A stretch of DNA of 64,000 bases from Chitinophaga pinensis (GCA_945860705.1 CAMART010000009.1:38248-102247), one strand, 5' to 3'. Positions 2,355 through 57,132 are shown, counted from the first letter of the stretch. Notes: generated by a model from the sequence alone, not told the origin. Numbers and translations are program-made.

Positions 2355-4004
2355 ATGAAGAGAATATATTTTTTAGCATTTTTTATTATACTATATATTT
2401 CAAGCTATTCACAACAAAAATTTTGGGTCACTTTTAAAGATAAAAATCAGTCTAACTTTTCTTTAGATAAACCAGAAGAATTTCTTTCTCCAAAGTCCGT
2501 AGAACGAAGGTTTAGACAAGGAATACCAATTGTAGAGAATGATTTACCTATAAGTGAGACTTATATAAACGAAATTAAAAATATTGCACCAAATATTATT
2601 CATGCTTCTAAATGGCTCAATGCAATTTCTGTAGAATTAAAAAGCAAAGAACAATATGATGCTATAAAAAATTTACCTTTTGTAAAAAATATCAGTATTG
2701 TAAATACATATAAAAACTTAGATAAGTCTACAATTGCTTCTAAGGACGAACCTATAATCACTATTGGAGCTCCTACTTTTGATGCAAATAAATATGGACA
2801 GGGACACAATCAAATAAAGATGATATCAATCGATACTTTACATGCATTGGGTTATACTGGCAAAGGTATGGATATAGCAGTTTTTGATGCAGGATTTATC
2901 AATGCAGATAAACTTGATTTTTTTGATATAGCTAGAAATGATGAACGAATCGTTCCCGTTTGGAATTTTGTAGATAATAATAATAGAGTATATATCAGAA
3001 GTGGACATGGTATGAATGTATTGAGTGTGATGTGTGCCAATATTCCAAATACATTTATAGGCGCTGCACCTGATGCAAAATATTATTTGTTTATCACTGA
3101 AGATTCATATAGCGAAACAATTGTAGAAGAAGATAATTGGGTAGCAGCAGCTGAAAAAGCAGATAGTATAGGAGTAGATATTTTTAATACATCACTTGGA
3201 TATACACAATATGACGATACCTCTACTAGTCATACTTATGGTTCTATGAATGGCGATAGTACTACTATCACACGTGCAGCAAATATTGCAGCAAGCAAAG
3301 GAATATTAGTAGTAAATAGTGCTGGTAATGAAGGCAATAGTTCTTGGCGATATATATCTGCTCCAGCCGATGGAGATAGTGTTTTTACTATTGGTGCTGT
3401 AAATGAAAATGGATTACTAGCAGGATTTAGTTCTAGAGGTCCGAATAGTAGCGGTCATCTAAAACCAAATGTGTGTGGACAAGGAGCAAATATAATTGTT
3501 GCGAGTAATAATAATAGTGTAGTTGCAAGAAGTAATGGCACCTCTTTTTCAAGTCCATTGATTGCAGCGTCGAGTGCTTGTTTGTGGCAGGCTTTTCCAA
3601 ATAAAACTAGTTCGCAGATTTTTCATGAGATAGAAAAATCAGCACATCTTTATACAAATCCAAATTATGATTATGGTTTTGGGATACCAAATTTTTATAA
3701 AGCATATAAAAAAATGGAGTTAGAATATAATCAGCAAAACCCTACTACTTCATTACCAAAAGTATATCCCAATCCATTTAGAAATGGATTTACTATATTA
3801 TGGAATAGTACTAGTGAAAGTCCATTAAGTATTCGTATTTTCAATTCCATAGGTCAATCGATTTCTGATGAAACTATACAAGTACCTGCAAATCAATTTT
3901 CAAGAATTTATATAAATAATATAGCAGAAAAAGATGCAGGGCATTATACACTACAAATTCTTCAAGACAAAAAAAGTTATACATATCCTTTAATCAAATA
4001 CTAA
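2355..4004 (+). CDS. S8 (subtilisin) family peptidase with T9SS type-A C-terminal sorting domain
   Basis: Catalytic triad contexts VFDAGF (Asp), SGHGMNV (His) and GTSFSSPL (Ser). C-terminal VYPNPF...ILW segment typical of Por secretion tails. Confidence 0.85.
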   Translation: MKRIYFLAFFIILYISSYSQQKFWVTFKDKNQSNFSLDKPEEFLSPKSVERRFRQGIPIVENDLPISETYINEIKNIAPNIIHASKWLNAISVELKSKEQYDAIKNLPFVKNISIVNTYKNLDKSTIASKDEPIITIGAPTFDANKYGQGHNQIKMISIDTLHALGYTGKGMDIAVFDAGFINADKLDFFDIARNDERIVPVWNFVDNNNRVYIRSGHGMNVLSVMCANIPNTFIGAAPDAKYYLFITEDSYSETIVEEDNWVAAAEKADSIGVDIFNTSLGYTQYDDTSTSHTYGSMNGDSTTITRAANIAASKGILVVNSAGNEGNSSWRYISAPADGDSVFTIGAVNENGLLAGFSSRGPNSSGHLKPNVCGQGANIIVASNNNSVVARSNGTSFSSPLIAASSACLWQAFPNKTSSQIFHEIEKSAHLYTNPNYDYGFGIPNFYKAYKKMELEYNQQNPTTSLPKVYPNPFRNGFTILWNSTSESPLSIRIFNSIGQSISDETIQVPANQFSRIYINNIAEKDAGHYTLQILQDKKSYTYPLIKY

Positions 4005-4521: not shown

Positions 4522-5220
4522 ATGGACGTAAGAATACTACTCGCTGAAGATGAAGAACATCTATTAGAAGCAATAAAACTCAACCTCGAAATGGAAGGTT
4601 ATGAAGTGGTGACAGCTAAAGATGGTAATGAAGCTATTAAAAAATTTGAGAAACAACGATTCAATTTAGCTATACTAGATGTGATGATGCCTGAAATGAA
4701 TGGTACCGAAGTTTGCCAGCACATACGTATCACTGATATGGAAATACCTATATTATTTCTTACTGCTAAAGATAGTAGCCAAGATAAAGTACTAGGTTTA
4801 AAAGTAGGAGCAGATGATTATATTACTAAACCATTTAATCTAGAGGAACTTTTATTGAGAGTTCGGGTACTTGTTAAACATAGTCTTAAAGGCACTAAAC
4901 AAGAACAAGATTTAAAAACATATAAGTTCGGAAGTAATACTGTAAACTTTGTGACCTATGAAGCAAAAGGTTACGATGGAGTGATGCATCATCTTACAAA
5001 AAAAGAAGTGATGCTTTTGAAATTATTAATAGATAGAAAAGATGAAGTAGTCTCAAGAAATGATATTCTACAGCATGTTTGGGGATACGATGTATATCCA
5101 AGTACCAGAACTATCGATAATTTTATTTTAGCTTTTAGAAGATATTTTGAGCCAGATCCAAAAGAACCCAAGTATTTTCAAAGTATCAGAAGTGTAGGTT
5201 ATAAGTTTGAATGCAATTAG
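4522..5220 (+). CDS. OmpR/PhoB-family response regulator (receiver plus winged-helix domains)
   Basis: Receiver motifs LLAEDEE, ILDVMMP and LTAKD.....G...GADDYITKPF. C-terminal winged helix LT.KE..LL..L.......SR..IL..VWG. Confidence 0.85.
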   Translation: MDVRILLAEDEEHLLEAIKLNLEMEGYEVVTAKDGNEAIKKFEKQRFNLAILDVMMPEMNGTEVCQHIRITDMEIPILFLTAKDSSQDKVLGLKVGADDYITKPFNLEELLLRVRVLVKHSLKGTKQEQDLKTYKFGSNTVNFVTYEAKGYDGVMHHLTKKEVMLLKLLIDRKDEVVSRNDILQHVWGYDVYPSTRTIDNFILAFRRYFEPDPKEPKYFQSIRSVGYKFECN

Positions 5221-9376: not shown

Positions 9377-11779
9377 TTAAAATACATATCTAGCTTGTAA
9401 GGTAAAATTAATAGGAGCATCGGCCCTACCGATACGAGTAGCTGTCAGTCTATTCGTAAAGTTTCTTACAATAAATGTAAGGTTGAGTTTTTTAGATGCT
9501 TCAAATCCAGCTCTTATGTCCATAGTAAGTGCACCTCTTTTAGTGCTTTCAATAAATTTAGCTAGTGTATTTCTACCTCCATCCAATGAACTAAAAACTA
9601 AATAATATTGAGATGGAATAATATCTGGTGCACTATTATAGTTGAGTGTATATCCTAGCATCCATTTTTTATATTTTGCTTGTATGTCCAGTCTTACCAT
9701 ATGTCTAGTTCTATATTGAAGAATACTTGTTTGTCTTATGCTATTAGTATCTGTAAAATATAAGGATAAACTATCTAATTTTTGAAATGCATATTTAATA
9801 GAATTTCCAAAGAACTTACCAAATCGTTCATTTTGAGAGCCAGCACTCGTATTACCTGGAAAATTGTAGGTATATCCAATCAAAGAAGTTAGTTCTACTT
9901 TACCAATAGTACCCTGACTCATCACAGATGCTTCATAGCCAGATATACGAGCTTTATCAATATTAAATGCTTTAAACCCAAAAAGATAATCTGCTTTACC
10001 TTTGAAAATAGTATCTCCATTGTCATACCTATTGTGATAAAGCCCTACCGTATATTCTACCATATCTGTGTATTCTTGTAAGAAAACACTAAAGTCAAAT
10101 AATGCTTTCCATTTATCTTTTATGATTAAAGCTTGTTTTACCCCTATTTCTGTATTCCAAGATTTTTCAGTTCGTAAGTTATTATTTGGAAATACATAAA
10201 TATCAGCATTCAAGTTGGCATTCAGATATTTTTCTGCCAAGCTAGGTATTCTATAACCCTGCCCCCATGATGCTCTAAAGAATGTTCCTTTACCAACTTG
10301 ATAGTTTGCTCCAAGTCTATATATAGGTTTAGTGATAGGAATAGTAGCACCTAAACTTGTTTTAGCAAAATTAAAATTATTAATATCAAATCTTAAACCT
10401 CCCACAACACTTAGCTTATTCCATTTCAATTCACCTTGAGCATATGCTGCAGCCATCCATGTTGTTAAAGTTCCAAAAGAAACGAATAAATTACTTACAT
10501 TCGTACTTACTGTAAATGGTATACCAGTAGTAAGTATAAATTTTTTATCTCCTCTAAAAGTAAATGTTTTTTGGTGTTGTAAATCTGCTGTGTATACCCA
10601 AGAAATAGCATCTATATCTGTGCCAGCTCCAAATCTTCTTACATTTAAAAATCGTGCATTTAGAGAAAGCCTATTATTTTTTGGAGCTATATATACCACA
10701 TGTGGGTCTATAGCCATACGCATATATTTATCTCCAGAGCCATTACTCACTTTATATATATTCGTATCTGCATCTTGTGCCAAAAAGAAACGATCACTAT
10801 TTTCATACATGATATTATAGTCAATACCCATTGTTAGTCCAGCTACTTTCTTAGGTACATATTTTGTTTTGAATGATACTCTTCCTCTCAGCTCATCTGC
10901 TCCTGTCAGATAGCTGTCAAAGTGATAGAAGTTGCCAGAAGCCACCAAATTAAAATTACCAAATTTTTGTTTGTGTAAAATTGACATACCCACTTCATAT
11001 GGTACATCTTTTCCCCACCATTTTATTTCTTTTCTTCTTGGGTCACCATACATAGTGATAAACTGGGTTGCTTCAGTATGTGATTTTTCAGTAGCCCATC
11101 CTGTACGCATATTCACTACTCCATTCAAAGCACTAGAACCATATACAACAGATGCAGCACCTTTTATTACCTCGACTTGCTCAGCCATCTCTATTGGTGC
11201 AAACTTAAGTAGCGCATCATTCAAATCTCCACTCATATAAGTAAGCCCATCTACCAATACAGCCGTTCTACTTCCCACTCCATAAGAATAACTACTGCCA
11301 CCTCTTATGCTTATTTGTCCATCTTGCACTTGCACACCAGGTGATTTTGCTACTACATCACCTAGTTGTGTAGCATTCACATTTTTAAGAAGTTCTTTAC
11401 CTATTACATCCATTGAAATGGTTTCATTTGTCAATTTTTTTTCGTACTGACTACCTGTGACTACTACTACTTCTAGGAGAGATTCAGTCTCTTCTAAAAA
11501 AAATGTAATCGGTTTCTCCTCATTAGTTTTTAAATTAATTTCTAAAGTTTGTAGCGTATAGCCAAGATATTTTACAGATATTGTATGCTTACCAGCAGAT
11601 GTTTTTATAGTGAATTCTCCATTTTGGTCACTCATAAAATTTTTATCAGCATCTAGTTGTATTATTGCTCCAGGTAATGCAGTTTTATCTTTTTTGTCTA
11701 AAACAGTACCGTTTATAGTTTGAGAATATATATTTATAAATGAAATTAAGATATATATTATTATTAATAATTTTTTCAA
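9377..11779 (-). CDS. TonB-dependent receptor with N-terminal carboxypeptidase-regulatory-like domain
   Basis: Signal peptide, then a GTV.D......LPGA.I CarboxypepD_reg-like start, a plug-like region, and a terminal aromatic residue (ARYVF). Confidence 0.85.
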   Translation of the reverse strand: MKKLLIIIYILISFINIYSQTINGTVLDKKDKTALPGAIIQLDADKNFMSDQNGEFTIKTSAGKHTISVKYLGYTLQTLEINLKTNEEKPITFFLEETESLLEVVVVTGSQYEKKLTNETISMDVIGKELLKNVNATQLGDVVAKSPGVQVQDGQISIRGGSSYSYGVGSRTAVLVDGLTYMSGDLNDALLKFAPIEMAEQVEVIKGAASVVYGSSALNGVVNMRTGWATEKSHTEATQFITMYGDPRRKEIKWWGKDVPYEVGMSILHKQKFGNFNLVASGNFYHFDSYLTGADELRGRVSFKTKYVPKKVAGLTMGIDYNIMYENSDRFFLAQDADTNIYKVSNGSGDKYMRMAIDPHVVYIAPKNNRLSLNARFLNVRRFGAGTDIDAISWVYTADLQHQKTFTFRGDKKFILTTGIPFTVSTNVSNLFVSFGTLTTWMAAAYAQGELKWNKLSVVGGLRFDINNFNFAKTSLGATIPITKPIYRLGANYQVGKGTFFRASWGQGYRIPSLAEKYLNANLNADIYVFPNNNLRTEKSWNTEIGVKQALIIKDKWKALFDFSVFLQEYTDMVEYTVGLYHNRYDNGDTIFKGKADYLFGFKAFNIDKARISGYEASVMSQGTIGKVELTSLIGYTYNFPGNTSAGSQNERFGKFFGNSIKYAFQKLDSLSLYFTDTNSIRQTSILQYRTRHMVRLDIQAKYKKWMLGYTLNYNSAPDIIPSQYYLVFSSLDGGRNTLAKFIESTKRGALTMDIRAGFEASKKLNLTFIVRNFTNRLTATRIGRADAPINFTLQARYVF

Positions 11780-48694: not shown

Positions 48695-48709
48695 TTGAAA
48701 TATAATATG

Positions 48710-48789
48710 TGCCCCAAGTGGGAATCGAACCCACACACTTTCGTACACGATTTTGAGTCGTGCGCGTCTACCAGTTCCGCCATCAGGGC
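48710..48789 (-). tRNA. tRNA-Leu (anticodon CAA), long variable arm
   Basis: The reverse complement is GCCCTGATGGCGGAACTGGTAGACGCGCACGACTCAAAATCGTGTACGAAAGTGTGTGGGTTCGATTCCCACTTGGGGCA. The anticodon loop is CUCAAAA, and the T-arm is GTGGGTTCGATTCCCAC. Confidence 0.9.
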
Positions 48790-48826: not shown

Positions 48827-49010
48827 AGATAAGATTTTTTACAAATAATCAAACCTTGATTAATAAATTGCTCTAAGCAATTAAATATTAATCACTCGGC
48901 AGAGCCGAGCGATAGAGTACTAGATAAGATTTTTTACAAATATTCAAACCTTGTTTAATAAATTGCTTTAAGCAATTAAATATTAATCACTCGGCAGAGC
49001 CGAGCGATAG
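48827..49010. repeat. tandem duplication (two 89-nt units, 95-bp period) with two hairpins per unit
   Basis: Units 48827-48915 and 48922-49010 differ at 3 positions. Each contains AATTGC(n5)GCAATT and CTCGGC-AGA-GCCGAG. Confidence 0.85.
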
Positions 49011-49028
49011 GTTAGCGTTAAATAATTA

Positions 49029-49114
49029 AACATTAACCATTTTACATCCAACATTACATTTAACATTTACTATTTAACATTTAGCATTTAAAATTAAACA
49101 TTTAGCATTTAAAA
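49029..49114. repeat. heptad-periodic AACATTT/AGCATTT/AAAATTA tract abutting the msrB stop
   Basis: The CAT trinucleotide recurs at 49031, 38, 45, 52, 57, 64, 78, 85, 99 and 106, giving period 7 with one slip. The last 21 nt are duplicated exactly. Confidence 0.8.
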
Positions 49115-49594
49115 TTATTTCCCGCTCGGTTTAAAATCTAGTGACAAGGAGTTGACACAATAGCGCATGCCAGTAGGAGCTGGGCCATCATCAAATACAT
49201 GACCTAAGTGTGAGCCACATTTTTTGCATACTATTTCTTCACGCAACATATTGTAAGTGCTATCTGTGTGAGATGCTACATTATTTCCTATTTCATTGAA
49301 GAAGCTAGGCCAGCCTGTACCACTCTTAAATTTTGTATCGGAGCTAAAAAGTGGAGCACTACATACGGCACAATAGTAAATGCCTTTTTCATAATGATTG
49401 TCATATTTCCCACTGAAAGGAGATTCTGTAGCTTTATCGTGGCATACTTTGTATTGTTCTGGACTGAGGTTGTTCCACTTAGCATTTTGAGTACTATCTG
49501 CTTGACTAGTATAGCTATTAGCATGAACAGTAGAGTTCATGTTTTTGCAGTTCATAGAGCTCAGTATTACTAAAAAATACATCATCGTTTTCAT
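49115..49594 (-). CDS. msrB: peptide-methionine (R)-S-oxide reductase with signal peptide
   Basis: CAVC....F.S..KF.SGTGWPSF and CKKCGSHLGHVF.DGP.PTG.RYC.NS. Confidence 0.9.
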   Translation of the reverse strand: MKTMMYFLVILSSMNCKNMNSTVHANSYTSQADSTQNAKWNNLSPEQYKVCHDKATESPFSGKYDNHYEKGIYYCAVCSAPLFSSDTKFKSGTGWPSFFNEIGNNVASHTDSTYNMLREEIVCKKCGSHLGHVFDDGPAPTGMRYCVNSLSLDFKPSGK

Positions 49595-50579: not shown

Positions 50580-51494
50580 ATGAAATACATATTTTATATT
50601 CTTTGTGTTACTATTTTTTTTGTTTCTTGTAAAAGAAATCAAGGAAGTAGTTTGATTATTGCACCAGATAGCAATACTATAGTAGCAGATTCAAGCTATT
50701 CAAAAGTTTATATAGCGGCTAATGAATTAAAAAAAGAGAGCGTAGATTTTTTGCAAATAGAGTACCCATTTATAAAAGAAAAAAATACAGGAGTAGTAAA
50801 AGTTTCTAAAAAATCATTCATCAATACTGCACAGAATTCTACAAAAACTGAGATGCAAATTGAGCCAATATATTTTAAAAATAAAACAGCAAGTATAGAA
50901 AAATACAATATAATCGTAGATGCAGATGCACTAGAATATAGAGATGCTTGTTTATTTGCTAAAAAAAATGGAACAGATACAACTGAAGATTTTTACTATG
51001 TATACAATCCATTGTCAGGCGAAGAATTATTTACCTATACCAATGATTATTTTGATTTAGTTATACCAAATTCTAAAGTGCGAAGATTCATCGGTTTTAC
51101 TTCTACAAAAAGAGTTTTAGCTAGCGAAGAAAAAACCATTAAAAATTTAATTGGTCATTTATTTTATGCATCTAATTTTAAACAAATACAAGAGTTTGAA
51201 ATCACTGCTAAAGATGAAACTATATTTAAAACTTTTTCTTTATATACTCCAAAAATATTATTGAAAACTACTAATGCTAATTATAGTTTGATAGATGAAG
51301 GTAGGAGACTAGCATTGATGAATTTGACAGAAGAAAATAATGCATCCGATTTTTCAAACATTCAATTAGAAATCACTTTTTATTATGGAGATGATGCAAA
51401 AGAATCTATTTGTATTATTCCAATAAAAGATGATAAGTTGGATATAAGTAAAAGTGTATACGATAAAAATTTAATACAAATCAATACTAAATAA
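50580..51494 (+). CDS. hypothetical lipoprotein
   Basis: Lipobox FFVSC. No recognised motif. Confidence 0.5.
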   Translation: MKYIFYILCVTIFFVSCKRNQGSSLIIAPDSNTIVADSSYSKVYIAANELKKESVDFLQIEYPFIKEKNTGVVKVSKKSFINTAQNSTKTEMQIEPIYFKNKTASIEKYNIIVDADALEYRDACLFAKKNGTDTTEDFYYVYNPLSGEELFTYTNDYFDLVIPNSKVRRFIGFTSTKRVLASEEKTIKNLIGHLFYASNFKQIQEFEITAKDETIFKTFSLYTPKILLKTTNANYSLIDEGRRLALMNLTEENNASDFSNIQLEITFYYGDDAKESICIIPIKDDKLDISKSVYDKNLIQINTK

Positions 51495-52096
51495 TGAATG
51501 AACAATTGCCAGTAATGGAGCACTTTTACACCTTGCAAGGCGAAGGTTATTATCAAGGACAAGCTGCCTATTTTATAAGATTGGGTGGCTGTGATGTGGG
51601 TTGTACTTGGTGCGATGTAAAGGAGAGTTGGGATGCTAGCAAACACCCAATGTATAGTATTGATGAAATAGTGCAATTCGTAAAAGATTCAAAAGCATCT
51701 CTCGCAGTCATCACGGGAGGTGAGCCAACCATGCATTCATTAGTTGCATTGACTGATACTTTGATAAATAATGGTATTCGATCTAATATAGAAACATCGG
51801 GTACCAATTCATTAACTGGTTCGTGGAATTGGATTTGCTTTTCTCCAAAAAGATTTAAAAAACCACTCGAAGAATACTATGAGAAATCTCATGAACTAAA
51901 AGTAGTTATCAATCATGTAAATGATTTGAGATGGGCTCAGGCACATGCGGATAAAATGAATCCTACATCTAAACTTTATTTGCAACCAGAGTGGGACAAT
52001 AGAGAGAGTGTAACGGAAGCAATAATCGATTATATAAAAGAGCACCCAAGATGGCAACTGTCACTTCAAACTCATAAGTATCTCAATATACCATAA
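51494..52096 (+). CDS. queE: 7-carboxy-7-deazaguanine synthase (radical SAM)
   Basis: FYTLQGEG...G....FIRLGGCDVGCTWCD, a CX3CX2C-type cluster with the QueE N-terminal pattern. Confidence 0.85.
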   Translation: MNEQLPVMEHFYTLQGEGYYQGQAAYFIRLGGCDVGCTWCDVKESWDASKHPMYSIDEIVQFVKDSKASLAVITGGEPTMHSLVALTDTLINNGIRSNIETSGTNSLTGSWNWICFSPKRFKKPLEEYYEKSHELKVVINHVNDLRWAQAHADKMNPTSKLYLQPEWDNRESVTEAIIDYIKEHPRWQLSLQTHKYLNIP

Positions 52097-52754
52097 AACT
52101 AGAATCCCGATAAATCAACCTGTGAATTATCGGGATACCTAACCTTAAAACTACCTAACACTATCTCTTACGTAGAGAAAATGAAAAGGTTACAATTATT
52201 TATCTTTTATTTGAAAAATTATAATTTGACTTAAAAATAGAATCCCGATAAATCAACCTGTGAATTATCGGGATACCTAACCTTAAAACTACCTAACACT
52301 ATCTCTTACGCAGAGAAAATGAAAAGGTTACAATTATTTATCTTTTATTTGAAAAATTATAATTTGAGTTAAAACTAGAATCCCGATAAATCAACCTGTG
52401 AATTATCGGGATACCTAACCTTAAAACTACCTAACACTCTCTCTTACGCAGAGAAAATGAAAAGGTTACATTTATTTATCTTTTATTTGAAAATTTATGA
52501 TTTGGGTTAAAAATAGAATCCCGATAAATCAACCTGTGAATTATCGGGATACCTAACCTTAAAACTACCTAACACTATCTCTTACGCTGAGAAAATGAAA
52601 AGGTTACAATTATTTATATTTTATTTGAAAAATTATAATTTGAGTTAAAACTAGAATCCCGATAAATCAACCTGTGAATTATCGGGATACCTAACCTTAA
52701 AACTACCTAACACCATCTCTTACGCTAGGAAAATGAAAAGGTTACATTTATTTA
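52097..52754. repeat. tandem array, 138-bp period, 4 full units plus 1 truncated unit
   Basis: AGAATCCCGATAA recurs at 52101, 52239, 52377, 52515 and 52653. The units are near-identical. Each has a 10-bp stem ATCCCGATAA / TTATCGGGAT with a 13-nt loop. Confidence 0.95.
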
Positions 52755-52841
52755 AAAATTTTTTAATAATTTATTTAAGTGATTGATTTACAAGTGTAAA
52801 AACTTTTCTTTTTTTATTTTTTAGTACAATATATTTGTAAA

Positions 52842-53621
52842 ATGCAATTGATAGATCAAATAAAACATCAAATAACTATAAATGATGTACCAAAAAGAAT
52901 AATTTCCTTGGTTCCCTCTCAAACAGAGTTTTTATTTGATATAGGCTTAGATGATTGCATCGTAGGAATCACCAAATTTTGCATACATCCAAAAGAAAAA
53001 GTAAAAGATATAATAAATATAGGAGGTACAAAAAATTGTAGACTTGATAAAATAGAATCTTTAAACCCAGATATAATCATTGCCAATAAAGAAGAAAATA
53101 CCCAATCGGATATTGAATATCTTCAAAAAAAATATACCGTTTATACTAGCGATATTAAAACTTTAGAAGACAATTATCAAATGATGATTGATATTGGTAC
53201 AATTTTTAACAAGCTAAATGAAGCAAATAAAATTATTGAACAAATCAAATCTGGTATAGCCTCTATTGATAGTTCATCTAAAAAGAAAGCTCTTTATTTT
53301 ATATGGAGAAAACCCTGGATGAGTATTGGTCATGATACTTTTATCAATGAAATGATGCACCAACTAGGTTTTGAAAATATAGTAGCTGAAAAGACTAGAT
53401 ATCCAGAACTAAGTATAGAAGAGATACAAAATTTGCAAGCTCCATACATCTTGCTTTCTAGTGAACCATTTCCATTCAAACAAAGACATATAGATGAGCT
53501 ACAAGAGTTGTGCCCTATGTCAAAAATTATAATGGTAGATGGAGAAATATTTAGTTGGTATGGAAGTCGTTTGCTACATGCAAGCACATACTTTCATAAA
53601 GAATTAGTTCAGCTATTATAG
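52842..53621 (+). CDS. ABC-transporter periplasmic binding protein (BtuF / helical-backbone metal-receptor-like)
   Basis: RIISLVPS.TE.L...GL.D.IVG.T..C and PD.IIAN.E.N motifs typical of cobalamin or siderophore class III binding proteins. Confidence 0.7.
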   Translation: MQLIDQIKHQITINDVPKRIISLVPSQTEFLFDIGLDDCIVGITKFCIHPKEKVKDIINIGGTKNCRLDKIESLNPDIIIANKEENTQSDIEYLQKKYTVYTSDIKTLEDNYQMMIDIGTIFNKLNEANKIIEQIKSGIASIDSSSKKKALYFIWRKPWMSIGHDTFINEMMHQLGFENIVAEKTRYPELSIEEIQNLQAPYILLSSEPFPFKQRHIDELQELCPMSKIIMVDGEIFSWYGSRLLHASTYFHKELVQLL

Positions 53622-55869: not shown

Positions 55870-57132
55870 TTAGCTTATTGTTTTTTTTACTAGTAATAAA
55901 AATTCTTGAATATCTTTTTTATTTACCAATAAATCTGATAGTGTAAAATTATTATTTTTATAAAACTGATAGAGAAGAAATAATGAACAAACTATAAACG
56001 AAATGCTCATTGTAAATGCTGTGCCAGTCATTTCGTACCTTACTATCAAAAAATATCCCATAAATATAGAAATAAAAGCGCCTAAGCCACAGGCTATTAT
56101 ATTGAGGTCTATTCTTCCTTTGCCTAAAAAATAAGAACTTAATACTATGAAAATAGGATAGGCAATAGCACCTGGTATGAGCCACCGTATATAATGTTTG
56201 AGTACTTTGCATGAACTACCAAAAATAAAAGTATAGACTTCAGTTGGCATCAAAAATATAATAGAAACCAAAATAATACTTATTAGAACAGATATTTTCA
56301 ATGTTTTTAGAGTTTGCTTACTTTGTTCTATATTGTTTTCAGAATTTGCTACTTGTATATAGTTGAGTGTAGCACTACTACGCGAAACTATCCATATACT
56401 TTCTATCAGTGACAGACCGATGGAGAAAACTCCAAGAGATATTTTTCCTTCAAATTGGTATAAGAGGAAAAATGAAAATCGCAACATCATAAATTGTAAA
56501 AAATCAAACAATTGATATTTGTATCCATGAGATAAAATCAATTTGATTTCTTCCATATTATAGCCTATTACATTGGTTTTGATGATATCTTTTGATAAAT
56601 ATATAGCTATCAGAATACTAATAATGCTGCTACAATACATCATGATGATGATAGACCCAAGTCCCATTCTGTTGATGCCAAATATCATAAATACAATGAT
56701 CAATAAATTGCTAATAATATAAATGATAGATAAAGTATTGTATTTTTTTATTTCTTGATTGGCAAGCAATACGGCACTAAGTAAGCCAAAAATGGCTTGA
56801 AAAAATGTGAGGATACTAATATGAAATAAATACTCATTACTTCCTACAATAAACAATCTTAGGAAAACAAATTCTAAACTACATACAATAGCTATCCATG
56901 TGATAGAAGTAAAATAGATAGTTTTAAATGAGTTTTTGGCATAACTATAAATGAGGCTATTGCTACTAAAAATATTGCTAAAAAAACCTACAAAAGTGAT
57001 TAAAGTAAGTATATAAGTAAATTCTCCTTTGCCAATAGCTCCGTAGTATCTAGTGATGATGAGCGCTAATATAAAATTGAGTACATTGCAAAGTACTCTA
57101 GTAAATATATTGCTTAATAAATATTGTTTCAT
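55870..57132 (-). CDS. polysaccharide biosynthesis flippase-like (MOP/Wzx) membrane protein
   Basis: About 12 TM segments. The N-terminus is LSNIFTRVLCNVLNFILALIITRYYGAIGKGEF, the Wzx-like pattern. Confidence 0.65.
   Translation of the reverse strand: MKQYLLSNIFTRVLCNVLNFILALIITRYYGAIGKGEFTYILTLITFVGFFSNIFSSNSLIYSYAKNSFKTIYFTSITWIAIVCSLEFVFLRLFIVGSNEYLFHISILTFFQAIFGLLSAVLLANQEIKKYNTLSIIYIISNLLIIVFMIFGINRMGLGSIIIMMYCSSIISILIAIYLSKDIIKTNVIGYNMEEIKLILSHGYKYQLFDFLQFMMLRFSFFLLYQFEGKISLGVFSIGLSLIESIWIVSRSSATLNYIQVANSENNIEQSKQTLKTLKISVLISIILVSIIFLMPTEVYTFIFGSSCKVLKHYIRWLIPGAIAYPIFIVLSSYFLGKGRIDLNIIACGLGAFISIFMGYFLIVRYEMTGTAFTMSISFIVCSLFLLYQFYKNNNFTLSDLLVNKKDIQEFLLLVKKTIS

Follow-up and report, generated by a model that had tools for sequence, protein, structure and literature searches.

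Tandem minus-strand cassettes beside a queE-like gene are predicted to encode a family of sibling small RNAs in uncultured freshwater Bacteroidota

The 64,000-nt stretch of Chitinophaga pinensis DNA analysed here (GCA_945860705.1 CAMART010000009.1:38248-102247; hereafter the window) carries five head-to-tail repeat units between a queE-like gene and a gene for a BtuF-like periplasmic binding protein. We propose, with moderate confidence, that these units are five tandem sibling small RNA (sRNA) genes on the minus strand, each of which would be transcribed into an RNA of ~67 nt from a promoter of the type read by ECF (extracytoplasmic function) sigma factors, end at its own terminator and act in trans. 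Most likely they represent a new sRNA family of uncultured freshwater Bacteroidota that is absent from Rfam, the ECF assignment being one of motif identity only. A first-pass annotation of the window, made by a model from the sequence alone, had offered small RNA genes, repeated cis-regulatory modules or micropeptide open reading frames (ORFs) as candidates; the minus-strand blocks conserved across lineages point to the first of these.

Tandem Repeats Finder reported a 138-bp period with 4.8 copies, 95% matches and 0 indels at 52094-52754, in agreement with the near-identical units and exact period annotated before. The 33-nt stem-loop ATCCCGATAA-N13-TTATCGGGAT has exactly 5 matches in the window (0.00 expected), which start at 52104, 52242, 52380, 52518 and 52656 in 138-bp steps, with none elsewhere. 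Likewise, the ACCTAAC..ACCTAAC block was found exactly 5 times, in 138-bp steps and nowhere else in the window (0 expected). In an alignment of the five units, columns 1-65 are constant save column 3, a variable patch of 4 nt occupies columns 77-80, and unit 5 departs from the other units at ~column 107, consistent with the annotated divergence of the fifth copy after about 100 nt. A covariance model matched the units at 52094-52195, 52232-52333, 52370-52471, 52508-52609 and 52646-52747, all on the minus strand with 104-115 bits, and each of these five homologous cassettes contains a predicted promoter-like motif and a predicted terminator. As annotated, the first unit begins at the stop codon of the queE-like gene (TAA, 52094-52096). 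The U tract of cassette 1 overlaps this stop codon on the opposite strand, so the sRNA genes would run toward queE and away from the BtuF-like gene. Unit 5 is nearest the BtuF-like gene and first in the direction of transcription, and the spacer upstream of it is unique sequence.

We retrieved 19 loci of the same species by exact-protein look-up with both flanking proteins (ENA, JGI and Logan lake metagenomes), and the array was present in 19 of 19. Because independent ENA, JGI and Logan assemblies show identical units in identical order, the array is no assembly artefact. Four units are found in the gap-free contigs L004, L007/L014 and L019, while L017 carries at least 5 and L008 at least 4, each of these two contigs terminating within the array; in both, the second unit is a variant other than the second unit of the window. 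A comparison of array length among strains, which the first-pass annotation had suggested, gave 4 or 5 units in gap-free contigs of near-identical strains. Most short-read assemblies of the species (L001-L019) break or carry 100-N gaps within the array, and copy numbers from short reads are therefore only indicative. Metagenome-assembled genomes (MAGs) will therefore usually lack the array, which may explain why only 2 GTDB species representatives match the core.

The same annotation had proposed a search for homologous units and synteny in relatives. Such units were found at the queE/BtuF position (clade 1) and also elsewhere, in a second clade described below. The BtuF-like protein has one 97% relative (L020, with four units), and the next closest is 65%. 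In L021 (MAG GCA_037130135.1, 'Bacteroidota bacterium') and L023, whose BtuF-like proteins are 63-64% identical, the stretch between queE and BtuF is likewise long and non-coding and is filled by units: 8.5 copies of a 147-bp unit (9 cassettes) in L023, and 2.2 copies of a 398-bp unit in L021, which amount to five homologous elements of two variants. Scanning genome contigs with the core brought in L025, a MAG that bears the label 'Saprospirales bacterium'; at least 3 elements lie downstream of its queE. The segment ATCGGGATACCTAACCTTAAAACTACCTAACA is identical among L021, L023, L025 and the window, while the hairpin loop and the AT-rich rest differ. At 63-64% flanking identity the 25-nt core is still identical and the spacers are not alignable, indicating conservation of the unit far above neutral. 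In the 56-58% BtuF relatives, including a 'Vicingaceae bacterium' MAG, the BtuF-like gene is fused behind tilS, and both the synteny and the array are absent.

When metagenome contigs were scanned with the core, one match was L027, while the other (L026) proved to be an unrelated CCTAACC-type simple repeat. L027 carries five copies, one at the contig end, beside acyl-CoA dehydrogenase, flavin adenine dinucleotide (FAD)-oxidoreductase and PaaK-like genes. Loci L033, L034 and L036 were found via 82-88% homologues of the L027 PaaK-like protein, and the covariance model detected 3, 2 and 5 copies in them, respectively. In these four clade-2 loci the copies are spread over ~1 kb without exact tandem repeats, the spacers are G+C-richer and unrelated, and the neighbours vary (Fasciclin/GldM in L033, PaaK/short-chain dehydrogenase in L036). 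Non-tandem copies, unrelated spacers and other neighbours argue for the unit as a gene-like module and not only a satellite, and neither of the neighbours that flank it in the window is required. A few kb off, L036 has a queE-like/folD block and L033 has a radical-SAM gene of 200 aa; the L036 RNA genes point toward the queE-like/folD block, as the RNA genes of the window point toward queE, which suggests that the clade-1 and clade-2 sites descend from an old common locus.

These comparisons bear on whether the array could be a neutral or nearly neutral minisatellite (variable-number tandem repeat, VNTR) that grew from the terminator region downstream of queE and owes its conservation to recent amplification. 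The exact 138-bp period, the 95% identity that includes the spacers and a copy number of 4 or 5 among near-identical strains and 4 to 9 among genera would all suit a minisatellite. However, the invariant core beside unalignable spacers in other genera, the non-tandem clade-2 copies in other contexts, and a position-specific conservation that includes a hairpin with compensatory changes all speak against it. As we read the comparative data, they already contradict this explanation, which we regard as very improbable.

The hairpin of each unit consists of a perfect 10-bp stem with a 13-nt loop, followed on the minus strand by UUCUAUUUUU or UUCUAGUUUU. RNAalifold on a MAFFT alignment missed this terminator because the L027 hairpins were misaligned; the problem was resolved by building the covariance model and using it to align 38 units (33 distinct) from 8 sources. 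A generic scanner with sigma-70 hexamers and a loop limit of 8 nt missed the 13-nt loop and was uninformative. Among the 33 distinct units, the terminator helix has changes on both sides in 6 of 9 pairs, with 96% of cells paired; on this model-fitted alignment, the covariation score was reached by 0 of 500 shuffles, and slid-partner controls paired in 27-51%. The clade-2 hairpins have other sequences and yet pair (CCCAUUGGU/ACUGAUGGG, CCCGUUAGU/ACUGCGGG and CCCCGUUA/UGCGGGG). In L027 and its relatives, 6-9 U always follow the hairpin on the strand that matches the minus strand of the window, and the U tract is kept in all lineages on one side only. Moreover, the U-G and G-U pairs of the hairpin would become C-A mismatches if read on the plus strand. 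The G-U pairs and the U tract, found only on the minus strand, indicate that the transcribed strand is the minus strand and that the hairpin is a predicted intrinsic (Rho-independent) terminator, as first annotated, whose structure rather than sequence is conserved. We therefore consider the units to be, very probably, minus-strand, terminator-ended transcription units.

The same helix was informative on whether the units might act as DNA, either as protein-binding sites formed by the palindrome and the two ACCTAAC direct repeats or as decoy promoters that titrate an ECF sigma factor. There is indeed an inverted and a direct repeat in each unit, and many strong promoters side by side could conceivably compete for a scarce sigma factor. 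The changes in the arms, however, keep RNA pairing, G-U included, instead of a DNA palindrome; the U tract is one-sided; and each lineage has a loop and upper stem of its own, where conserved sequence would be expected of a binding site. A decoy, in turn, would need neither a conserved transcript nor a terminator, and a role of the units as DNA seems improbable to us.

By column, the 33 distinct units give the profile ttGtAACcTttt....tt.....g.CGTA..ag...gtGTTAGGTAgTTTTAAgGTTAGGt, after which come the base of the hairpin and the U tract. The only positions upstream of the core that never vary are G.AAC and CGTA; the T-rich stretch that follows AAC and an 'ag' behind CGTA are conserved for the most part. 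G[T/A]AAC is present in 33 of 33 distinct units, with CTTTT following it in most, and 16 nt separate the G.AAC block from CGTA (17 nt in four units). Both blocks persist even in the units of L021 and L023 nearest the BtuF-like gene, although the sequence between G.AAC and CGTA is wholly replaced there (TGTAACATAATTATATTAATTGCGTA and TGAAACATAAATTATTCTTGTGCGTA). In the window there are 5 matches to TG[T/A]AAC-N16-CGTA (0.06 expected), every one of them within a unit, and in all fetched loci the N16 form is confined to sRNA cassettes of type A or type B (see below). The invariant core starts exactly 8 nt past CGTA in every unit, and the intervening 8 nt vary freely. An ECF-driven transcript, such as those from sigmaW and sigmaE promoters, is expected to start ~8 nt after CGTA. 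ECF sigma promoters carry 'AAC' in the -35 and 'CGT' in the -10 element, as in tGAAACnTTTt ... CGTA of Bacillus subtilis sigmaW (PMC5758882), and ECF-type promoters with a CGT -10 box have been mapped in Flavobacterium psychrophilum (PMC9723704). The spacing of 16 or 17 nt lies within the ~14-17 nt of ECF sigma promoters. The bipartite motif is thus probably an ECF-type promoter from which transcription would start ~8 nt after CGTA. The 4-nt patch that differs between copies, correctly noted in the first-pass annotation, coincides in our reading with the promoter spacer at its 3' end, a region expected to vary.

Among the type-A copies of clade 2, we found another predicted transcript (type B) that has its own terminator and a conserved sequence unlike that of type A (..UAGUUUAUUGUUAA..AAUCCUGAAGGUUUGGUUUCCUUUAGGAUUUUUUUUU; ..TAGTTTATTGTTAA..AATCCTGAAGGTTTGGTTTCCTTTAGGA and a run of T); type B is not present in the window. 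Type A and type B share only the bipartite motif, at equal distance, and in the 8 sources all matches to the motif lie 8 nt before the core save the 3 that precede type B (L027 4487, L033 9864 and L036 2183). Two unrelated transcripts that have only this motif in common support a promoter and not an RNA structural element. Two more segments are conserved at the clade-2 clusters: a ~90-nt G+C-rich element (GGGGGTTCCGTTCGC..GCGAAACGGCGGGCTTTCCG..) within them (L033 10125-10215, L036 2735-2825 and L027 ~5025-5133), for which Rfam gave no match at the gathering threshold in L027, and a second G+C-rich segment (GCGTGAAGGGGCGGCCAAAGTGCCATGCACTTGAGAGCACCTGACC) downstream of them (L033 ~10528-10575 and L036 ~3125-3175).

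Alternatively, a housekeeping-type promoter could drive longer RNAs (~100-130 nt) whose start lies upstream of TGTAAC, with TGTAACCUUUU...GCGUA as a structured 5' part. This would accommodate the long-range stem TAACCTT/AAGGTTA of the first-pass annotation, a complementarity found in most units (helix 1, 94% of cells paired), as well as the good folding of the whole-unit minus strand (z = -4.2 to -5.6; the plus strand folds less well) and the sequence TAAATTGT, which stands just before TAACC in L021 and L025 and resembles the flavobacterial TAnnTTGY box (PMC9723704). But helix 1 has 0 pairs changed on both sides, and its pairing is lost, with no compensating change, in 7 of the 33 distinct units (which carry the seed variant AAAGUUAGG) and also in the BtuF-proximal units of L021 and L023 (TGTAACATAA); its 5' arm coincides with the -35 region and its 3' arm with part of the seed. 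Nor did the small annotated hairpin hold up across lineages, among which its register shifts (71% of cells paired), and its 'loop' GCGTA is the -10 element. No TAnnTTTG/TAnnTTGY box is kept upstream of the units across lineages, in contrast to the textbook tRNA-Leu promoter of the same window (TTTG-N18-TATCTTTG), which is quite unlike the unit motif. The element TATAATTTG, previously compared with the Bacteroidota -7 box, is an improper TAnnTTTG, in which TA and TTTG are separated by three bases instead of two and the sole upstream TTTG is 8 nt off where a -33 TTG would stand ~19 nt upstream, and it lies in a lineage-specific spacer that is not alignable in L021, L023, L025 and L027. The type-B transcript, for its part, has nothing but the bipartite motif in common with type A. 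We consider a longer RNA unlikely.

Returning to the ~67-nt sRNA, its 5' end was placed by the fixed 8-nt distance to CGTA. The RNA would begin with the core GUGUUAGGUAGUUUUAAGGUUAGGU, an invariant 25-nt G/U-rich stretch that we refer to as the seed and of which the first 15 nt fold as unpaired in the prediction, and would continue with the 10-bp hairpin and UUCUAUUUUU. Release of the cognate ECF sigma factor would activate all five promoters together and produce a burst of near-identical sibling sRNAs. These most likely act in trans via the 5' stretch, which would either pair with A/C-rich segments of mRNAs or bind a protein. A speculative extension is a copy-number-tunable device, in which unequal crossing-over alters the number of cassettes and hence both the sRNA dose and the number of high-affinity promoters competing for one ECF sigma factor. 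With arrays of 4, 5 or 9 units seen, the gain of a stress response would become a heritable difference between strains of these streamlined freshwater Bacteroidota, and read-through transcripts of the array could come under added feedback through the match of AAGGUUA to the -35 region. We hold such a device to be doubtful.

Several observations weigh against the proposed sRNA genes. The seed sequence AAGGUUA is the exact complement of UAACCUU in its own -35 region (52137-52161 vs 52186-52192; same in each unit), a match kept in most units without covariation. It is probably no RNA helix, but the complementarity could also reflect an upstream region that belongs to a longer RNA. Target prediction against the 53 start regions of the window gave a best energy of -18.1 kcal/mol versus a mean of -17.8 kcal/mol for shuffled seeds, which is not significant. 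ECF sigma factors usually autoregulate their own gene from the same motif, but none of 10 candidate small ORFs of the window tested as an ECF sigma factor, nor does an ECF sigma gene appear in the precomputed Pfam tables for the loci fetched. Strict and relaxed motif searches found no motif outside the units in the window, and hence no regulon is visible there. Units within a genome are nearly identical throughout, the AT-rich spacer included, and recent amplification or gene conversion contributes to this identity. Finally, the strand, the 5' end and expression itself are all deduced from sequence comparison.

The plus strand might instead be the functional one, encoding 17-residue peptides (possibly type I toxins opposed by an antisense RNA) or providing leader or riboswitch-like control of the BtuF-like gene. 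All five 17-codon ATG ORFs of the first-pass annotation are present in the window with the sequences given there, and the BtuF-like gene, which has the same orientation as these ORFs, follows immediately downstream of the array. In the wider set, however, the ATG is missing in 23 of 42 homologous units, and the remaining ORFs have 1-22 codons and unrelated sequences; in L020, although it is 97% identical, one unit reads ATT and another has an ORF of 14 codons. The ATG itself falls in the variable promoter spacer, and the micropeptides found no support. The cis-regulatory proposal fares no better, because the clade-2 units lie far from any BtuF-like gene, and the Vicingaceae-like relatives have the gene without the array. 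With no riboswitch match in Rfam and the poorer folding of the plus strand added to this, a plus-strand function is hardly credible. A type I toxin-antitoxin system was rejected on the same ORF loss and variability, the peptide having only ~8 consecutive hydrophobic residues. A Fur box, considered because of the iron/B12-type neighbour, was also rejected: a good half-site was seen by eye only in L021 unit B, inconsistently with the other lineages.

Database searches returned no known identity for the array. At the gathering threshold, Rfam 15 found only 3 tRNAs in the window, and at E<=10 the array matched only CopA (19.8 bits vs 60) and mir-454 (15.9 vs 60), both driven by the hairpin; searches of L021, L023, L025 and L027 gave nothing but tRNAs. 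The earlier statement that the array belongs to no known RNA or repeat family holds in these searches. The core scan of the collections returned 2 genome-contig records (2 species representatives) and 2 metagenome-contig records, and a literature text search found no paper with the core sequence. A mobile element (MITE, miniature inverted-repeat transposable element, or insertion sequence remnant) was rejected, as no copy occurs elsewhere in the window or in the flanks of 14 sources and the core has 0 matches in plasmids, phages and viral contigs. In line with the first-pass annotation, the array is not of the clustered regularly interspaced short palindromic repeats (CRISPR) type: the whole unit repeats without unique spacers, between queE-like and TroA-like neighbours, and it is the presumed functional stretch that is conserved. 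A dCas12f-sigmaE guide array (PMC13472631) was rejected as well, with no such gene nearby and no variable guide.

Table 1. Coordinates of the predicted cassettes, neighbouring genes and type-B transcripts (window positions unless a locus is named)
Feature	Position	Strand	Basis or remark
Whole array, 5 head-to-tail cassettes, 138-bp period	52094..52754	-	Tandem Repeats Finder, covariance model
Cassette content: AT-rich spacer, promoter-like element, predicted short RNA, predicted terminator	each unit	-	
Unit 1 promoter-like element, TGTAAC(CTTTT)-N16-CGTA; -35 hexamer 52189-52194, -10 CGTA 52169-52172	52169..52194	-	pattern search
Unit 2 promoter-like element, TGTAAC-N16-CGTA	52307..52332	-	pattern search
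Unit 3 promoter-like element, TGTAAC-N16-CGTA	52445..52470	-	pattern search
Unit 4 promoter-like element, TGTAAC-N16-CGTA	52583..52608	-	pattern search
Unit 5 promoter-like element, TGTAAC-N16-CGTA	52721..52746	-	pattern search
Predicted sRNA 1, ~67 nt; seed 52137-52161 (GUGUUAGGUAGUUUUAAGGUUAGGU), hairpin 52104-52136, U tract ~52095-52103	52095..52161	-	
Predicted sRNA 2; seed 52275-52299, hairpin 52242-52274	52233..52299	-	
Predicted sRNA 3; seed 52413-52437, hairpin 52380-52412	52371..52437	-	
Predicted sRNA 4; seed 52551-52575, hairpin 52518-52550	52509..52575	-	
Predicted sRNA 5; seed 52689-52713, hairpin 52656-52688	52647..52713	-	
QueE-like radical-SAM gene, convergent with the sRNA genes, outside the element	51494..52096	+	Pfam Radical_SAM
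TroA-like / BtuF-like periplasmic binding protein gene, divergent from the array, outside the element	52842..53621	+	Pfam Peripla_BP_2
Predicted type-B transcript	L027 4487-4600; L033 9864-9965; L036 2183-2285	+	behind TG[TA]AAC-N16-CGTA

Both flanking genes were named with caution. The best NCBIfam matches of the radical-SAM neighbour are QueE models, every one under its cut-off, and we call it 'QueE-like'. The other neighbour ('helical backbone metal receptor') matches NCBIfam NF038402 TroA_like with 149.6 bits (cut-off 30), and its similarity to BtuF is weak. A good TAnnTTTG -7 box, TATATTTG, ends 4 nt before the ATG of this gene (window 52814-52844); with so short a distance its mRNA may be leaderless or nearly so, and the array may not be needed as its promoter. 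Proteins of 304 aa (50580-51494, +; its stop overlaps the queE start) and 420 aa (55870-57132, -; adjoining purL) have no Pfam or NCBIfam match, and their position is kept in all clade-1 relatives. Directly upstream of tRNA-Leu(CAA) (48709-48789, -), a 95-bp unit is repeated 1.9 times at 48827-49010 (and at 49025-49117). Within each copy lie a small hairpin, CTCGGCTCTGCCGAG, and a housekeeping promoter of the canonical Bacteroidota form, TTTG-N18-TATCTTTG, so the repeat looks like a duplicated tRNA promoter region. AT-rich microrepeats of 7, 14 and 21 bp come after it, and strains differ nearby by additional 36- and 49-aa gene calls in L002, L003 and L006.

Most ECF sigma regulons of Bacteroidota are unknown. 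Very few regulatory RNAs of this phylum are known to us beyond gut Bacteroides and one Flavobacterium, and we know of none tied to an ECF sigma factor. With ~22 ECF sigma factors per genome on average in Bacteroidota (PMC7826278), a compact and recognisable promoter-RNA module could be used to find the matching sigma factor and its regulon in complete genomes. The family would be a candidate for Rfam from abundant, uncultured lake bacteria, and as a natural case of 5-9 identical predicted sRNA genes in tandem it may help to show why bacteria multiply such genes. It also illustrates that a promoter can be mistaken for RNA structure when a single genome is read.

Among known systems, the sigmaE-dependent envelope-stress sRNAs RybB, MicA and MicL of enterobacteria, with their 5' seed and terminator, serve as our working analogy for the mechanism. 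The window RNA is predicted to share with them a short length, an ECF-type promoter and a 5' single-stranded stretch followed by a terminator. Unlike them, it has no similarity to these RNAs in sequence or in Rfam, comes from an uncultured member of the Bacteroidota, occurs in 5-9 tandem copies instead of one and has a G/U-rich seed. SigmaE-dependent sRNAs are also treated in PMC12249550. To our knowledge, Bacteroidota are believed to be generally without Hfq. Intergenic minisatellites such as the mycobacterial interspersed repetitive unit (MIRU)/VNTR loci, or the MITE-borne minisatellite reportedly present in Porphyromonas gingivalis, are similar in being intergenic tandem repeats of ~50-150 bp with variable copy number, here starting at the upstream stop codon. 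The units differ from them in the predicted promoter, transcript and terminator blocks, which are conserved across genera, and in having non-tandem homologues too. The Listeria sRNAs LhrC1-4 are tandem siblings. Sibling sRNAs such as PrrF1/2, OmrA/B, AbcR1/2 and the csRNAs occur in 2-6 copies, mostly pairs, and are thought to raise dosage or diversify targets (PMC4211561). The promoter-like motif agrees with sigmaW promoters (PMC5758882) and with the flavobacterial SM6 'CGT box' (PMC9723704) in the -35 AAC, the T tract, the 16-17 nt spacer and the -10 CGTA, the consensus being the same to the letter; those promoters have mapped starts and known sigma factors, whereas the window matches them by sequence. 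As in the known siblings, highly similar genes adjoin one another, and each appears to have a promoter and a terminator to itself; the cassettes described here stand apart in running head-to-tail in 5 (window) to 9 (L023) copies, with identical seeds, near-identical spacers and a seemingly strain-variable copy number.

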